A stretch of DNA of 61,300 bases. Source: an uncultured virus (IMG/VR IMGVR_UViG_3300020183_000017) (Duplodnaviria; Heunggongvirae; Uroviricota; Caudoviricetes). This document shows positions 14,205 through 49,162 of the stretch, in pieces. Below the pieces are notes generated by a model that was given only the letters and a program-made list of their open reading frames with translations, was not told the origin of the DNA and searched no databases. A program made the translations under genes and the position numbers. The DNA lies in the IMG/VR virus record IMGVR_UViG_3300020183_000017. The stretch is one strand, 5' to 3'. Each line of letters starts with the position of its first letter. Within the stretch, counting starts at the first letter, position 1.

Positions 14205-14953
14205 TGCTAAAAGGTCAAACATTCTATCATGGTGTTCTTAGAAAGACTATTGTTGCTTTTGGTAGTCTTTTCAGCAATATCAAGATTGAGAGAAAACTTA
14301 AAAGCGATGTTCCAGAACAGGGAAATGCAGGAGACACTATTCAGACAGTTGATGTACCTATTGCATATGCGCCTAAAGAGAAATGGATTGTTCGTGTTGA
14401 TTCAGACCCAACACTAGAAAATCAAGTATATACAACTTTACCTAGATTGTCATTTGAAATTGTTAATATCGGATACGATGCGAGCAGAAAAGTAAATAGA
14501 ATGAATAAACTGGTATGCGTAAAGAGTGATGGTGAAAGAGATCAGATGTTCTCGCCAGTTCCGTATAATATTGATATTTCATTATATGCTATTTCTAAAA
14601 CACAAGAAGATTGTTTACAAATAGTTGAACAGATATTACCATATTTTACTCCAGAATTTACTTTGTCTTTAAATGTAGTTCCTGAAATGAATGTCGTTCA
14701 GGATATTCCTATTATATTAAACAGCGTAAGTGTTCAAGATGATTATGATGGAGATTTTCAGACTAGAAGATTTGTTACTTATACAATGACATTTACATTA
14801 AAGGTCAATCTGTTTGGACCAGTTTCTAAAAACGGTATTGTCAACTCAGTTACTGCTTCTATCTTACAAACTAATCAGTTTGATATTGAAACGTCAACAT
14901 TCACAGCTAATCAGCCAACACCATCTTCTACAATTATTGAAGGCTGGGAATAA
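14204..14953 (+). CDS. gp15: Tail sheath stabiliser/terminator gp15
   Basis: 'FYHGVLRKTIVAFGSLFSNI', 'VPIAYAPKEKW', 'LPRLSFE', 'QIVEQILPYFTP'. Confidence 0.95.
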   Translation: MLKGQTFYHGVLRKTIVAFGSLFSNIKIERKLKSDVPEQGNAGDTIQTVDVPIAYAPKEKWIVRVDSDPTLENQVYTTLPRLSFEIVNIGYDASRKVNRMNKLVCVKSDGERDQMFSPVPYNIDISLYAISKTQEDCLQIVEQILPYFTPEFTLSLNVVPEMNVVQDIPIILNSVSVQDDYDGDFQTRRFVTYTMTFTLKVNLFGPVSKNGIVNSVTASILQTNQFDIETSTFTANQPTPSSTIIEGWE

Positions 14954-16533
14954 TGAAAACTTATAATGCTAATGCAAATTTAAAAGCAGTAGGAGTTCCT
15001 GTTGACTGGACAGAAGAAACTATTAGAGAGTATATGAAGTGCAAAGAAGATCCTGTATACTTTATTGATACCTATTGCTACATCGTTACTCTTGATCATG
15101 GTCTTCAACATTTTAAGTTATATGACTGTCAGAAAAAGAAAGTAAGAACAATCCACGATAATCGTAAAGTAATTATTATGGAAGGTCGTCAGCAAGGTAA
15201 GACTACAACTGCAGCGGGGTATATCCTTTGGTATACTATTTTTAATGACAATAAGAATGTCGCTATTCTTGCAAATAAAGCAGCAACATCAAGAGAAATT
15301 CTTTCACGTTATCAGTTAATGTATGAGTATCTCCCTTTATGGATGCAACAAGGTGTTAAGACTTGGAATAAAGGTGACGTAGAACTAGAGAACGGATCAA
15401 AGGTTTTTACTGCAGCTACCACAGCTTCTGGTATTCGTTCTAAATCTGTTAATATGCTTTACATTGACGAAGCAGCGATTATTCCTAATCAGATTGCAGA
15501 ACAGTTCTTTACCTCTATCTATCCTACAATTTCTGCTGGTACATCTACTAAAATTCTTATCACTTCAACTCCGCTTGGATACAATCACTTCTGGAAATTC
15601 TGGAATGACGCTGAGCAAAAGTTCAACGATTTCGTTCCTCTGTTTATTCCTTATTGGGAAATCCCAGGCAGAGATGAAAAGTGGGCACAGGAGCAGCGTC
15701 GTCAACTTGGCGACCTTAAATATAACCAAGAGGTTCTATGTAAATTCCTTGGTTCTTCTCTCACCCTCATTAACTCAGATGTTATTGCACAGATGTCTCC
15801 AACAAGACCTATTTACAGCAACGAAGGTCTTGATATCTACATTAAGCCAGAGAAAGACCACAGTTATGTGCTAATTGCAGACACGTCACAGGGTTTAGAC
15901 GGAGACTACAGCGCATTTACGATTATAGACATTACAACTACCCCATATTTCATAAACGCTAAATATAGAAATAACAAGGTAAGCCCTCTGTTATATCCGA
16001 ACATTATAGAAAAATTAGCAAAACAATACAATGACGCATATGTCTTAGTTGAGGTCAACTCTGACCCACAAGTTGCTGATATTCTTTATAGTGAGTTAGA
16101 ATATGAAAATATGCTGTTTGTTAATAAAGGCTCTCAAGGACAAACAGTTAATGGTGGGTTTGGTAGTGGAAGAACTAGGTATGGGGTTGTGACTGATAAG
16201 AAAGTTAAACGAATCGGTTGTTCTATTTTAAAGAGCTTTATCGAGGAGAAAAAACTTATTATAACTGATGCTGATATTATATCTGAAATATCTACATTTA
16301 TTGAGAAAAGAAATTCCTTTGCAGCAGACGATGGGTACTATGACGATCTAGTTATGACATTAGTTCTTTTCTCTTGGTTAACTACTAACCCATATTTTAA
16401 AGATTTAAATAATCTAAATTTGAGAAAACTGATTTACGAAAAACAATTAAAGGCAATTGAAGACGAATTAACCCCATTTGGATTTTTTGATGATGGAACT
16501 CCAGATGAGGAAAAACCTTTGTATAACTTCTGA
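14953..16533 (+). CDS. gp17: Terminase large subunit gp17
   Basis: Walker A 'GRQQGKTT', Walker B 'LYIDEAA', 'ITSTPLGYNHF', nuclease-domain 'DDLVMTL'. Confidence 0.97.
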   Translation: MKTYNANANLKAVGVPVDWTEETIREYMKCKEDPVYFIDTYCYIVTLDHGLQHFKLYDCQKKKVRTIHDNRKVIIMEGRQQGKTTTAAGYILWYTIFNDNKNVAILANKAATSREILSRYQLMYEYLPLWMQQGVKTWNKGDVELENGSKVFTAATTASGIRSKSVNMLYIDEAAIIPNQIAEQFFTSIYPTISAGTSTKILITSTPLGYNHFWKFWNDAEQKFNDFVPLFIPYWEIPGRDEKWAQEQRRQLGDLKYNQEVLCKFLGSSLTLINSDVIAQMSPTRPIYSNEGLDIYIKPEKDHSYVLIADTSQGLDGDYSAFTIIDITTTPYFINAKYRNNKVSPLLYPNIIEKLAKQYNDAYVLVEVNSDPQVADILYSELEYENMLFVNKGSQGQTVNGGFGSGRTRYGVVTDKKVKRIGCSILKSFIEEKKLIITDADIISEISTFIEKRNSFAADDGYYDDLVMTLVLFSWLTTNPYFKDLNNLNLRKLIYEKQLKAIEDELTPFGFFDDGTPDEEKPLYNF

Positions 16534-28362: not shown

Positions 28363-28914
28363 ATGGCAGGTGGAGCGCATTACGTAAACAATCAAGATTT
28401 TCTAGCTGCAATTATTGAGTGGAAAGCAAAAGTAAAAGAAGCTGAAGAGTGTGGTGAAGAAACACCACCAGTAACTAACTATATTGGTGAATGTCTTTAT
28501 AAGATAGCAACTCATCTATCCTATAAAGGCAACTTCATTAATTACTCTTATCGAGATGATATGATATTAGATGGAGTAGAGAACTGCTTATCTATCGTTA
28601 AAAACTTTGATCCCGCAAAATCAACAAATCCCTTTGCTTATTTTACACAGGTCATCTATTACGCTTTTCTTAGAAAAATCGCAAAAGAAAAGAAACAAAG
28701 CTACGTAAAGCAAAAACTAATTCAACAAATGCCTTTTGAAATGTTCGAGTTGCAGGAACATGATGAGGGCGATGAGCATCACAATACATACCTAGAATAT
28801 ATGCAGATGAATAATGACTTTGATGATTTTATTGAACGTAAAAAAGAAAAGCGTAAAAGCAAAAAAGCAAAAGCTGGTAACACTCTTGAGGACTTATTAA
28901 AAGGTGAAGAATGA
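28363..28914 (+). CDS. gp55: Late-transcription sigma factor gp55
   Basis: 'HYVNNQDFL', 'NFINYSYRDDMILDGVENC', 'NPFAYFTQVIYYAFLRKIAKEKKQ'. Confidence 0.97.
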   Translation: MAGGAHYVNNQDFLAAIIEWKAKVKEAEECGEETPPVTNYIGECLYKIATHLSYKGNFINYSYRDDMILDGVENCLSIVKNFDPAKSTNPFAYFTQVIYYAFLRKIAKEKKQSYVKQKLIQQMPFEMFELQEHDEGDEHHNTYLEYMQMNNDFDDFIERKKEKRKSKKAKAGNTLEDLLKGEE

Positions 28915-29975
28915 AAGTTGCTATTATAACTGACCAACATTTTGGCGCTCGTAATGACAGTATTATTTTCTTAGACTTCTTCCAAAAATTCTATGACAAT
29001 ATTTTCTTTCCTAGTATTGATGCAGCTGGCATTAACACTGTCCTTATTCTTGGGGATACTTTTGATAGACGAAAGTATGTAAACTTCTATGCTCTTGATC
29101 GAGCAAAGAAAATGTTTTTTGATGAATTAGCGAAACGTGAGATTGATGTATACATGCTTGCTGGTAATCATGACACCTACTATAAGAACACCAACGAAGT
29201 TAATTCCCCAGACCTACTTTTAAGAGAGTATGATAACATTACTGTTATTGATACTCCACAAACCATTCATCTAAACTATGAAGATGTTGATTGCGATGTG
29301 TGTATGATCCCTTGGATCTGCGCAGACAATTATCAAAGAGCCATGGATGAAATCAACAACACGTCCGCAACTCTTTGCATGGGGCACTTTGAGATTGCTG
29401 GGTTCGCAATGTATAGAGGAATGGAAAGTCATGACGGACTTACAAAAGAATTATTTAAGAAATTTGACATGGTATTCTCTGGGCATTATCACCACCGTTC
29501 TAATGATGGTCATATTTTTTATCTGGGGAACCCCTATGAGCTCACGTGGCAGGATTATAACGATCCCAGAGGATTTCACTTGTTTGATTTTGGATCAAGA
29601 CAACTCGAATTTATCGGAAACACTTATAGTATGTTTACAAGATTCGAATACGACGACACCCAAGAAGTCATCGACATTAGTTCGCTCGATCTAAAAAACT
29701 GTTTTGTTAAAGTTATCGTAGTTAACAAGACTGATTATTACAAGTTTGACCAATTCGTTCAACAATTATATAATAAGGGTTGCGCCGAAATCAAAATCGT
29801 TGAAGACTTTTCTGAATATAATGAAGGCGCAGTATCTTCTGATATAAACTTGGAAGACACTATGGTTTTACTTAACGATTATATTGAGTCAGTTCAAACT
29901 GATACCGATAAAGAGAAAGTAAAAACATATATGAAAACACTCTATACTGAGGCAATTAATGTGGAGGTAGTATAA
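28911..29975 (+). CDS. gp47: Recombination endonuclease gp47 (Mre11-like)
   Basis: 'ITDQHFG', 'LGDTFDRR', 'GNHD', 'SGHYH' metallophosphoesterase motifs. Confidence 0.96.
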   Translation: MKVAIITDQHFGARNDSIIFLDFFQKFYDNIFFPSIDAAGINTVLILGDTFDRRKYVNFYALDRAKKMFFDELAKREIDVYMLAGNHDTYYKNTNEVNSPDLLLREYDNITVIDTPQTIHLNYEDVDCDVCMIPWICADNYQRAMDEINNTSATLCMGHFEIAGFAMYRGMESHDGLTKELFKKFDMVFSGHYHHRSNDGHIFYLGNPYELTWQDYNDPRGFHLFDFGSRQLEFIGNTYSMFTRFEYDDTQEVIDISSLDLKNCFVKVIVVNKTDYYKFDQFVQQLYNKGCAEIKIVEDFSEYNEGAVSSDINLEDTMVLLNDYIESVQTDTDKEKVKTYMKTLYTEAINVEVV

Positions 29976-30028
29976 TGCAACTAGAATTAAACTTTGGTCA
30001 ATGGACACAAATGGAATTATTTGAATGA
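29975..30028 (+). CDS. Putative 17-aa micropeptide MQLELNFGQWTQMELFE
   Basis: Read directly from sequence. ATG overlaps the gp47 stop (TAATG), TGA overlaps the gp46 start (ATGA), and GGAGGT lies just upstream. Confidence 0.6.
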   Translation: MQLELNFGQWTQMELFE

Positions 30029-31743
30029 TTGTATTTAAGAGTGTGCAGTGGCAGAACTTTCTGTCAACTGGTAATGCACCGAATAGAGTTTTACTAAACA
30101 AATCGACAACAACACTTATCATTGGCAAGAATGGTGAAGGTAAGAGCACAATCTTAGATGCTCTTTGCTTTGCTCTATTTGGTAAACCTTTCAGAAACAT
30201 CAACAAAGGACAGTTAGTAAATAGCATCAATCAAAAACAATGTTTGGTTACTATTGAATTCTCTATTGGTGGAAATAATTATGTAGTTAACAGAGGTATC
30301 AAACCTAATGTCTTTGAAATTTATCACAATGATAATCTTATCAATCAAGATGCCGCAATAAAAGACTATCAGAAAATTTTAGAACAGCAAATTCTAAAAC
30401 TAAACTATAAAACATTTACGCAGGTAGTTATCTTAGGATCTGCTTCTTTTGTTCCGTTTATGCAGTTACCAGGTGGTCAGCGTAGAGAAGTTATCGAGGA
30501 TATCTTAGACATCCGTATCTTTTCAACGATGAATCAATTATTAAAAGAAAAGATTCAATCAACTAAAGAGGAGTTAGCAAGTGTTGAATCGCAGCTACAG
30601 ATTTCAAAGTCAGCAGTGGATGCGCAACAAAAAATTATATCCAATCTTGTTACCTCCAAGAAAGAGCATCTTGAGTCTATCAGAACAAGAATCGCATCTA
30701 ATCAATCTGAGATCGATTCCACAACAACATTACTTGAGGGATTATCTAATAGAGTTACGAATCTTAGAGCGAGTATAGTAGATAAACAAAGCGTCAGTGA
30801 AGAAGTATCATCGTTTAGAGAAACCCTTGTTAAAGTAAATCAAAAAGTCTCTGATCTTAACGATAGAGTTAGATTCTTTGAAACAAATGATGAGTGCCCT
30901 TCTTGCGCTCAGAATATTCCTCATACGCATAAGCAGAAAATTGCTGGCGCTTTGAATGAGGATCTTACAGATAATGTTTCTGAGAAAGAAATAATCAAGT
31001 CAAAATTAGAAAAACTTGGTAATAGACTTAAAGAAATTGATGATATTGTGAATCAAATTACTGATCTTAATATTGAGATCTCTACGATGAACACAACCAT
31101 CACTACATTAAATTCACAGAACTTAAAACTATCACAGGAGATAGAAAAATCTAATTCTAATACAGAAAGCATTGATACAGAAAAACAGAAGTTAAAAGAA
31201 CTGGCTAAAGAAGCGATGCAATCTTTAGATAGAAAAACTGTATTGAGTGAGGAGAGAACAGTACAAGAAATATCATCGACTTTATTGAAAGACACTGGTA
31301 TTAAGACAGCTGTCATAAGAGAGTACTTGCCAGCGATGAATAAACTTATTAACATGTATCTTCAAGCGATGGATTTCTATGTTCACTTTGAACTAGATGA
31401 ATCGTTTAACGAAACTATTAAGTCAAGATTCCGTGATGAATTCACTTATGCTAGTTTCTCTGAAGGCGAGAAGATGCGTATCGATCTTGCTATTCTATTC
31501 ACTTGGCGCCAGATTGCTAAGATGAAGAACTCAGTAAATACAAATTTACTTATTCTTGATGAAATCTTCGACTCATCTCTTGACACATCAGGAACAGACT
31601 ATTTCTTGACAGTTATGAATCAGCTTGGAGAAAAGACAAATGTTTTTGTAATTTCTCATAAAGGCGACCAACTATTTGACAAGTTTCACAGCGTCATCAA
31701 GTTCGAAAAGAAGAACGACTTCTCAGTAATGGCAAACCCATAA
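30025..31743 (+). CDS. gp46: Recombination ATPase gp46 (Rad50-like)
   Basis: 'GKNGEGKST', zinc hook 'CPSCAQ', 'FSEGEKMRIDLA', 'LILDEIFDSSLD'. Confidence 0.97.
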   Translation: MIVFKSVQWQNFLSTGNAPNRVLLNKSTTTLIIGKNGEGKSTILDALCFALFGKPFRNINKGQLVNSINQKQCLVTIEFSIGGNNYVVNRGIKPNVFEIYHNDNLINQDAAIKDYQKILEQQILKLNYKTFTQVVILGSASFVPFMQLPGGQRREVIEDILDIRIFSTMNQLLKEKIQSTKEELASVESQLQISKSAVDAQQKIISNLVTSKKEHLESIRTRIASNQSEIDSTTTLLEGLSNRVTNLRASIVDKQSVSEEVSSFRETLVKVNQKVSDLNDRVRFFETNDECPSCAQNIPHTHKQKIAGALNEDLTDNVSEKEIIKSKLEKLGNRLKEIDDIVNQITDLNIEISTMNTTITTLNSQNLKLSQEIEKSNSNTESIDTEKQKLKELAKEAMQSLDRKTVLSEERTVQEISSTLLKDTGIKTAVIREYLPAMNKLINMYLQAMDFYVHFELDESFNETIKSRFRDEFTYASFSEGEKMRIDLAILFTWRQIAKMKNSVNTNLLILDEIFDSSLDTSGTDYFLTVMNQLGEKTNVFVISHKGDQLFDKFHSVIKFEKKNDFSVMANP

Positions 31744-37224: not shown

Positions 37225-37263
37225 TTATATACATAGTTATGTGTTTAATTGATAGGAGAAAAC

Positions 37264-37926
37264 ATGAAGTTGTCTAAAGAAACAGTCGGAGTCCTAAAAA
37301 ACTTCGCAACCATTAATGCCAATCTTTTAATTAAAGATGGTTCTAAACTCTCAACCATCTCTGCTCAGAAGAATGTTATGGCTTCGGTCAGCGTTCCTGA
37401 AGTTTTTGATAGTGAGTTTGCCATCTATGATCTAAACGAATTCCTTGGAGCGTTATCTTTATTTGAAGATCCAGAACTGGATTTTTCGGAGAAGTCTGTT
37501 AAGATTAAGCAAGGTAACAACTCTATTCGTTACTATGCTGCTGATGTCGGAACTCTAACTGTTCCACCAGCAAAACAGATTAGCTTACCTTCTGATGACA
37601 TCTCATTTGAGTTAAATGCGTCTACTCTCGCTATGATTCAGCGTACTGCTTCTGTTCTGCATTCTAATGATGTAAGCGTAGTTGGTGATGGATCTATGAT
37701 TAAGATCGTAGTTGCCGACAAGAAAAATGCAGCTGCGAATGCCTATGAAGTAACCCTTGGTGATACTGATAAAACCTTTAAGATAAACTTAAAGGTTGAC
37801 AATCTTAAAATGATTCCTGGGAATTACTCTGTTGCTATTTCTAACAAGAAGATTAGTCGTTTCCAGGCAACTACTTCTGATCTAGTTTATTATGTTGCTG
37901 TTGAGGCTGATTCTACATTTGAATAA
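37264..37926 (+). CDS. gp45: Sliding clamp gp45
   Basis: 'MKLSKETVGVLKNFATIN', 'FAIYDLNEFL', 'YYVAVEADS'. Confidence 0.96.
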   Translation: MKLSKETVGVLKNFATINANLLIKDGSKLSTISAQKNVMASVSVPEVFDSEFAIYDLNEFLGALSLFEDPELDFSEKSVKIKQGNNSIRYYAADVGTLTVPPAKQISLPSDDISFELNASTLAMIQRTASVLHSNDVSVVGDGSMIKIVVADKKNAAANAYEVTLGDTDKTFKINLKVDNLKMIPGNYSVAISNKKISRFQATTSDLVYYVAVEADSTFE

Positions 37927-47836: not shown

Positions 47837-49162
47837 ATGGTAAAAGTATACGTAGCGCCAAAATATCACGAAAGCGAACATTTGCTTGGAATGTTTGTTG
47901 ATGAACAACAGTATGATGTTCTTGTTGAGGAAGATATGGATTGTTATCTTCCGCTGGGAACTAATATCGGTAATGATAAACTTGATGAGAAACGAATTGC
48001 ATTTAAGTTTAGAAAGAACTTCTTCACTAAAGAAGAACAACAAGCTGCATATGTTGGGCTTCGTGAAGCAGCTATCAGAACTGAGAATCGTGGACTTGCT
48101 TCTGGTATTAAAGCAGGAACTCAGGTTACTGGGGTTGGTCGTGAGTGGGTTACTAACTACCAAGAAGAAATGCTAAATGGTATTATCGACGCACGTAATG
48201 CAGCTATTGTTGATGAAGATGTCATCGAAACAATCAGATCCAAATATCCAACAGAAGAATCTAGACTGAAGGCTCTTGGTTCTGGTAAGAATAATGTTTG
48301 GGTCATCTCCCGTTTCCGTGGTAAGTTTAACTTTGATGAGTGGGTTGATTCTATCAAAACATTGGGTCGAGAAGAGCGAGCAAAATCAGCAGAAGAAACT
48401 ATGAAGATGGTTTCAGAAACTTCTTATGGTAATCCAGTTGACTCGGGTATTGCTGGTTGGTTCGATCGCTATCCACGTATTCCTTATGGTCGTGCAACAA
48501 CATACACAAGAGATAATTGGGATAAGTTTAAGATGGCATTTCCATTCTTACAATCTTTGAATCGTGGTTTCAAAGAACTTCTTCCATGGCGTTGGTCTAA
48601 TCAGAAAGCAGCAGCTGATAAGATTGATCAAAGTTTCTTAGTTCCTGAAACTGTGTTCACTACAATTACCGTGAATAAAACATTTAGAACTGCTGCCCAT
48701 CGCGACGCAGGTGACCTTGACTCAGGTCTTTCAAACCTTCTAGTTCTTTCCAATGATGGTCGTTTCACTGGAGGATATTTGGTGTTCCCTGAGATTCGTG
48801 TTGCTGTTAATGTGCGACCAGGAGATCTTCTATTAGTTAATAACCATGAAGTGATTCATGGCAATACTCCAATTGTTTGTGAGGAAGGTTCTGAGCGTAT
48901 TAGTCTAGTTTGTTACTTCCGCGAAAAGATGCTTGAACTTGGAAGTAAAGAATATGAAGATACACGTTATCAATTCGTTGAAGATCGCAGAACTAACCAA
49001 GAGCATCCAGAGTGGCGTAAGCTATGGAATGGTGTTTCTCCAAGTATGTGGGATAATCAAGAATGGTATGATTATCTTGAAGAGAAACTTGGTTATGATG
49101 AGTTAATTAAGTATCATCCTAAAGCAGAGAAAGCAAATTCTTTAGAAGGATTCTTTTCATAA
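47837..49162 (+). CDS. TET/JBP-family 2-oxoglutarate/Fe(II) dioxygenase (predicted methylpyrimidine hydroxylase)
   Basis: 'FTTITVNKTFRTAAHRDAGD' (HxD), 'GGYLVFPE', 'PGDLLL', 'IHGNTPI' (distal H), 'ERISLVCYFRE' (2OG-binding R). Confidence 0.88.
   Translation: MVKVYVAPKYHESEHLLGMFVDEQQYDVLVEEDMDCYLPLGTNIGNDKLDEKRIAFKFRKNFFTKEEQQAAYVGLREAAIRTENRGLASGIKAGTQVTGVGREWVTNYQEEMLNGIIDARNAAIVDEDVIETIRSKYPTEESRLKALGSGKNNVWVISRFRGKFNFDEWVDSIKTLGREERAKSAEETMKMVSETSYGNPVDSGIAGWFDRYPRIPYGRATTYTRDNWDKFKMAFPFLQSLNRGFKELLPWRWSNQKAAADKIDQSFLVPETVFTTITVNKTFRTAAHRDAGDLDSGLSNLLVLSNDGRFTGGYLVFPEIRVAVNVRPGDLLLVNNHEVIHGNTPIVCEEGSERISLVCYFREKMLELGSKEYEDTRYQFVEDRRTNQEHPEWRKLWNGVSPSMWDNQEWYDYLEEKLGYDELIKYHPKAEKANSLEGFFS

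Follow-up and report, generated by a model that had tools for sequence, protein, structure and literature searches.

A conserved 17-residue micro-gene between gp47 and gp46 of T4-like lake phages carries two motifs of the bacterial sliding-clamp type

Does the short gap between gp47 and gp46 of a T4-like phage hold a gene of its own and, if so, on what would its product act? We addressed this question in the window, a 61,300-nucleotide stretch of DNA from an uncultured virus of the Caudoviricetes (IMG/VR record IMGVR_UViG_3300020183_000017). PHROG matches identify its phage as T4-like, with gp55, gp47, gp46, gp45, gp44, gp62 and gp43, and lake and freshwater DNA makes up 20 of the 22 listed sequencing runs in which the phage is present. 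None of the 22 runs is RNA, so they say nothing about expression of the locus. The original prediction had placed in the gap an ORF that fills it exactly and overlaps both neighbors, and the coordinates bear this out: the ATG of the micro-ORF and the gp47 stop codon have one base in common (TAATG), and its TGA overlaps the gp46 ATG (ATGA). The features of the locus are as follows.

28911..29975, + strand: gp47, SbcD/Mre11-like nuclease subunit, the left flank (phrog_100, E 1e-115)
29975..30028, + strand: micro-ORF of 17 aa, MQLELNFGQWTQMELFE-stop (translation; ten distinct intact variants in the same slot; codon-level selection)
29978..29995, + strand: motif 1, the hexamer QLELNF, which is QLELDF in nine of ten variants (pN/pS 0.059; fit to the published consensus and to LQLELDF)
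30008..30022, + strand: motif 2, the pentamer QMELF, overlapping the weak gp46 ribosome-binding region (codon variation, consensus fit and duplex energy)
30025..31743, + strand: gp46, SbcC/Rad50-like ATPase, the right flank, its start overlapped by the micro-ORF stop (phrog_77, E 4e-167)

Contigs from all four lake-water runs cover the slot, with no differences listed inside it; since the four runs agree across it, the micro-ORF is not an assembly slip. Two canonical clamp-binding motifs arose in 13 of 2,000,000 random 16-mers of the window's amino-acid make-up (about 6.5e-6 per 16-mer), and in about 1 of 1,000 shuffles of the micropeptide itself. We conclude that the micro-ORF between gp47 and gp46 is a genuine, overlooked phage micro-gene.

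A gp46-based search found 79 viral loci, 75 of which could be parsed. No slot gene is present in 59 of the 75, where the gap from gp47 to gp46 is at most 19 nt. The slot of seven others holds a longer ORF of 96-107 aa that starts MQQLEI or similar (the long allele), four hold other ORFs, and one of the 75 is the window's own sequence. At the gp47/gp46 junction of a further four (L004-L007), the long allele's C-terminal domain stands alone, without its motif arm. A first scan, in which the motif letters were fixed, returned 15 matches, nine of them junction loci and three due to chance; flank-only scans anchored in gp47 and gp46 were run to remove the bias of this approach. Among the 120 viral loci listed by the flank-only scan, every junction of 46-51 nt held the peptide (15/15, one being the window's own), as did six of seven metagenome loci in intact form, the seventh having a premature stop. 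A scan with motif 1 found 16 loci, all of them in the gp47/gp46 slot. The flank-only scans yielded all of the 10 distinct intact micro variants, which belong to lake T4-like phages with gp47 identities of 55-92%. One further micro copy (L221:518-571) carries a premature TGA and three other changes, and here decay and assembly error are not distinguished.

The ten intact variants follow the pattern MQLEL[DN]FG[QE]-x(2-4)-Q[LMR][EG]LF. In codons 2-9, 11 of the alleles are synonymous and 2 are non-synonymous (neutral share 0.194, binomial P 8e-7, with each allele counted once and kinship not modelled); these counts disregard two codons inserted in L218 and do not include L221. The pN/pS ratio is 0.059 in motif 1, 0.63 in linker codons 10-11 and 0.247 in gp47. 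The two linker residues vary freely, and the L218 insertion is in frame and lies within the linker. Motif 2 gives a pN/pS of 0.34 with a pS of only 0.29; its last two codons are invariant, and such substitutions as occur at codons 13-14 preserve or strengthen a GG element. Because this motif lies partly over the gp46 ribosome-binding region, its conservation counts for less as evidence and may be partly at the RNA level. From the codon pattern, the micro-ORF is conserved as a protein, and the residues that stay fixed in it belong to the clamp-binding consensus. Conservation of the peptide itself in related phages had been proposed as a first check, and it holds at the amino-acid level, in ten intact variants with codons 2-9 constrained.

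We then considered how the peptide might be transcribed and translated, for which two upstream features, both inside gp47, are relevant.

29746..29774, + strand: sigma70-consensus promoter-like site, TTGACC-17-TATAAT (matching the consensus at 11 of 12 bases; 200 nt upstream of the micro-ORF)
29963..29968, + strand: Shine-Dalgarno GGAGGT in the last codons of gp47, serving whichever gene follows (6 nt before the micro-ORF start)

The GGAGGT sequence was correctly predicted to precede the micro-ORF; it belongs, however, to the last coding part of gp47 and also occurs in relatives lacking a slot gene, where it serves gp46, so on its own it gives no evidence for the peptide. Its duplex energy is -10.6 kcal/mol in the window and -7.1 to -10.9 kcal/mol across 11 loci, whereas the Shine-Dalgarno of gp46 itself, inside the micro-ORF, is weak (-3.1 to -5.9 kcal/mol). 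Given this pairing of a strong and a weak signal, ribosomes should load at the peptide start. Sigma70-like sites alone are near chance (34 found, 26 expected). Within the promoter-like site, the Asp codon is GAC in 54 of 74 gp47 rows, near-copies included, the highest share among 24 conserved Asp columns and well above the gene-wide 0.36; TAT is likewise the highest of 18 Tyr columns, and AAT the highest of 17 Asn columns. All but one of the 17 micro rows and all but one of the 7 long rows reach a score of at least 11/12, as do 21 of the 42 slot-less rows. In one gp47 lineage both boxes decay together. These codon preferences suggest a gp47-internal promoter kept by synonymous codon choice and predicted to be of host type. 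Its occurrence in half of the slot-less rows (21/42) indicates that it is not specific to the peptide and would also serve gp46. With this promoter upstream, the peptide would be the first complete reading frame of what is probably an early transcript.

To follow the history of the slot, we mapped its contents on a quickly built tree of 72 gp47 rows, from which identical rows, gp47 sequences below 48% identity and those with fewer than 250 aligned residues were omitted; L218 was dropped because its gp47 duplicates another, and the rows do not include L221. The micro state changes six times on this tree, at least four of these changes being forced. The window nests with two long-allele phages. 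Its micro-ORF agrees with that of L090 in 53 of 54 bases, against 70% identity for the two gp47 proteins, so part of the agreement between the ORFs reflects recent transfer. Between L218, which carries the micro form, and L056, which carries the long one, the flanks are 90-100% identical. Judging from these comparisons, the slot is an exchangeable cassette that can be empty or hold the micro or the longer allele, and its content is an accessory gene that is gained, lost and swapped. The micro-gene is dispensable, as 59 of 75 relatives have no slot gene and one copy (L221) is broken.

In a distant clade (L156 and L173, gp47 identity 42%), a gap of 37 nt is taken up exactly by another ORF, of 14 aa, which is unrelated to the micropeptide. 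A widespread class of two-motif peptides was considered and found to be unsupported: two broad two-motif scans returned at least 86 distinct matches each, of which 30 and 33 were in-frame and open among the matches listed, and nearly all of these were shadows of long ORFs read in other frames. When a Shine-Dalgarno and the absence of a long shadow were asked for (the frames of gp47 and gp46 aside), the matches listed came down to the gp47/gp46 family and a single unrelated ORF of 15 aa. The latter, from an unrelated phage (L085/L089/L091:1501-1548), is a stand-alone ORF, MQLELFPEAEQLELF, with a Shine-Dalgarno and two pentamer motifs, and is represented by a single sequence.

Which clamp would the peptide recognize? 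According to a review (PMC11139829), bacterial beta-clamp motifs have the forms Q-phi-x-[LM]-[FL] and Q-phi-x-[LM]-x-[FL], with tolerance at positions 2 and 3, and LQLELDF is the most abundant phage-display binder of the beta clamp, its affinity being in the low micromolar range (PMC11139829, citing Georgescu 2008). The canonical hexamer is present in 10 of 10 micro variants and the canonical pentamer in 8 of 10. QLELDF, contained letter for letter in LQLELDF, occurs in 9 of 10, the window's copy having N for D; in the literature searched, we found QLELDF in PMC11139829 only. Motif 2 reads QLELF, QMELF or QLGLF in eight variants and QRELF in two, where the Arg at position 2 falls outside the canonical pentamer; QRELF, QLELF and QMELF all conform to Qx[D/E][L/M]F, the consensus of the Mor/MuC family (PMC12867686). 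Variation within the motifs falls at positions 2 and 3, the ones that the review describes as tolerant, and the net charge of the micropeptides (-3 to -4) fits the acidic flanks of beta-clamp motifs (PMC11139829). A product of 17 residues also provides the exposure in a disordered segment that is expected of a beta-clamp ligand.

The phage has a clamp of its own, which is the obvious rival target.

37249..37926, + strand: gp45, the phage's T4-type sliding clamp (phrog_223, PF09116, T4 gp45 structure 1czd at E 6e-29)

With its own gp45, the phage does not need the host clamp. In the clade, gp43 tails read QVTLESFF or QSSLEDFF and gp55 tails [ST]L[ED]xF[FLM]. None of the ten micro variants matches the clade tail [ST]L[ED]xF[FLM], the PIP box Qxx[ILM]xxF[FY] or LDFL. 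QLELNF and QMELF thus proved to be beta-clamp-type motifs, as first proposed: both fit the published consensus and not the gp45 tails of the clade. A DnaN domain (PF02767) was not matched in two complete relatives or in the 16-kb nearest record, while the positive control gave a match in 10 of 14 genomes. With no DnaN found in these relatives, a beta-type motif points to the host clamp. Among the large ORFs of the window, G002 and G003, clamp-binding-like motifs showed no enrichment, observed counts being about those in shuffled sequences. A Tet/JBP-type oxygenase (PF12851, window positions 47837-49162) ends in a gp45-type tail, NSLEGFFS, with similar tails in G002 and G003, which suggests that base modification may be coupled to the phage clamp.

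The long allele of the slot has a different makeup. This family comprises at least 294 proteins of 95-119 aa (for example L002:2681-3004, L569-L648 and P0001-P0120), for which PHROG, Pfam, BFVD, the Atlas (best 0.87) and GenBank phages returned no family or named fold. Of the 120 proteins listed, a sample biased to the words of the query, 119 carry QxxIxxF[FWY], the pattern of the clade's gp43 tails, and 116 a canonical hexamer. Among the best 80 of 350 long-allele loci, which bear the same query-word bias, 22 lie between gp47 and gp46, 41 between gp45 and gp44, and 15 elsewhere or with only one side placed; two were unparsed. The PIP-type motif and the 41 loci next to gp45 tie the wider family to the phage's own clamp. 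Residues 1-22 were modelled as coil (pLDDT 50-70). When residues 1-36 of the long arm, rather than the micropeptide, were modelled with E. coli DnaN as a stand-in for the host clamp, Q15-L20 was placed in the canonical pocket with a score of 0.79, the best of three controls reaching 0.41; the mark used was attained by 116 of 157 solved pairs and 2 of 215 mismatched pairs. Contacts agreed between runs by at least 82%, and the partner pLDDT was at least 54. This pass may reflect memory of solved clamp-peptide structures.

The micropeptides score 5.9-8.8 bits on the long-arm profile, a value equaled by 1-22 of 500 shuffles, with the window's copy the weakest. The motif spacing of L218 is that of the long arm, and L-T-x-Q is common to both, so kinship between the micro form and the long arm is suggested. 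One long copy (L608:1501-1830) has a premature TGA that leaves a 27-aa arm alone; decay and assembly error are not distinguished here either. From their motifs, we infer that the long form combines a phage-clamp tag with a host-clamp tag, whereas the micro form would consist of two host-clamp tags, and the long family becomes a candidate adaptor between the two clamps. A tentative extension, possible rather than probable in our judgment, is that the slot is a swappable two-allele clamp cassette, in which the long allele links or arbitrates between gp45 and DnaN through its PIP-type and host-clamp motifs, and the micro allele of 16-20 residues addresses the host clamp only, as a genetically encoded peptide inhibitor that has converged on the best phage-display binder.

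Our model proposes that the micropeptide is an early decoy of the host beta clamp that slows host replication. Binding to host DnaN, for whatever purpose, appears probable from the motifs; the decoy role built on it is a reading to which we incline with some reserve. Early in infection, host RNA polymerase would start at the gp47-internal promoter, and ribosomes, loading at the strong Shine-Dalgarno, would translate the peptide and continue into gp46. The acidic product would fill the hydrophobic pocket of host DnaN, mainly via QLEL[DN]F, with the second motif acting as a spare site that allows faster rebinding or links two rings. Pol III, the clamp loader and Hda would be displaced and host replication slowed or stopped, while the phage would copy itself with its own gp43/gp45/gp44-62 machine, which uses different docking tails. 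The peptide had been imagined as bivalent, which is probably wrong for a single ring: the motif starts are 10 residues apart, about 35 A when fully extended by our estimate, and the central channel of the clamp alone is about 35 A wide (PMC11139829), so it is unlikely that one peptide bridges both pockets of one ring. Tandem rebinding or two-ring linking is likelier than true bivalency. Motif-bearing proteins can be toxic through the clamp, as reported for MuC (PMC12867686) and SocB (PMC9690074, PMC12795458). Against the decoy stand the dispensability of the gene, its broken copy, the N for D in the window's own motif 1, the ties of the wider family to the phage's clamp operon, and the consideration that a free micromolar 17-mer would have to beat much tighter partners and survive proteases. 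As to the host, 71 of the best 80 cellular matches to the AhpD of a close relative carry names that we take to be those of Burkholderiales, a weak hint that a member of this order may be the host of the window's phage. The closest complete relative (L251, G003) encodes a permuted tmRNA (14363-14752) and an AhpC/AhpD pair (14843-15891).

Other readings of the locus must be set against the decoy. Host DnaN might be bound without any shut-down of replication, the peptide blunting other clients such as mismatch repair, translesion polymerases, Hda, clamp-using mobile elements or co-infecting phages. This reading draws on the same motif evidence as the decoy; the patchy distribution and rapid swapping of the gene fit a conflict gene, weak clients would be easier to displace than DNA-bound Pol III, judging by published affinities (PMC11139829), and the toxicity of MuC is described as acting via Hda/RIDA (PMC12867686). 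We nevertheless regard it as unlikely, since all partners use one common pocket (PMC11139829) and a decoy made in quantity could scarcely leave the replicase untouched. The target could instead be the phage's gp45 or its loader, with the peptide tuning the hand-over among replication, recombination (gp46/47) and late transcription. The PIP-type motif of the long allele, its many loci beside gp45 and its possible kinship with the micropeptides speak for this idea, and motif 1 contains LDF, part of the LDFL motif of T4; the micro form, however, has no PIP aromatic pair, fits none of the gp45-docking patterns, and has invariant residues that match the bacterial consensus, which makes a gp45 target rather improbable.

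The possibility that the ORF is a translational-coupling spacer or an RNA element, with an incidental likeness to clamp motifs, had been raised from the outset. The weak Shine-Dalgarno of gp46, which probably makes gp46 dependent on coupling, would suit such a role, as would the 3' codons, which look RNA-constrained, and the broken copy; the near-identity of the window and L090 owes something to recent transfer. Yet most relatives join gp47 to gp46 directly, so no spacer is needed, and in codons 2-9 the residues are fixed while synonymous sites are free, a pattern that largely refutes this alternative; with two canonical motifs so rare in random 16-mers, we consider it very improbable. Finally, a real peptide might act on some other partner, for example as a decayed remnant of the long arm: the long allele's C-terminal domain has no name in PHROG, Pfam, BFVD or the Atlas, and L608 shows a long arm cut short by a stop. 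This would leave unexplained why the clamp consensus is matched exactly, and in two registers, and we give it the slimmest chance of all. The decoy thus remains the reading we favor.

If it is true, the micro-gene would be among the smallest host-takeover genes, below the limits of gene calling, and would represent a second phage route against the beta clamp after Gp168, by mimicry at a pocket targeted by antibiotic programmes. The ten micro variants form a natural series for tandem-motif behavior, the long allele contributes 294 or more uncharacterised proteins in which two different clamp tags follow one another, and how host replication is silenced by T4-like phages infecting lake bacteria becomes testable. 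A stand-alone phage peptide of this kind was not found in the open-access literature searched.

Among known systems, the natural clients of the clamp and synthetic peptides such as QLDLF and LQLELDF (PMC11139829) have, like the micropeptide, hexamer or pentamer motifs with acidic flanks. The natural clients, however, are enzymes or regulators for which the motif is a tether, whereas the micropeptide consists of motifs and a short linker only, in a phage whose own clamp is not DnaN. The gp45-docking tails of T4 gp43, gp55 and gp33 (PMC2988020, PMC9690074) are short acidic-hydrophobic clamp tags from the same kind of phage; the first motif of the long allele resembles the clade's gp43 tail, while the micropeptide fits neither LDFL nor the PIP box nor the clade tail. 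SocB of Caulobacter and RipA of pneumococcus (PMC9690074, PMC12795458) act at the hydrophobic pocket of the clamp and disturb replication, but they are far larger, chromosomal toxin-antitoxin proteins, and no antitoxin partner was seen for the micropeptide. The MuC/Mor family of phage Mu (PMC12867686) likewise has two clamp-binding motifs and is toxic through the clamp on overexpression; MuC, however, is a transcription factor of 16.5 kDa that makes use of the host clamp, and Mu needs host replication, which the window's phage does not. The Staphylococcus phage Twort protein Gp168 (PMC8565349, PMC11139829) is, like the micropeptide, small, with a proposed role in halting host replication at the beta clamp. 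Gp168 is folded and plugs the DNA channel, whereas the micropeptide is a 17-residue acidic motif peptide that falls outside the Gp168 family and would act at the pocket instead.
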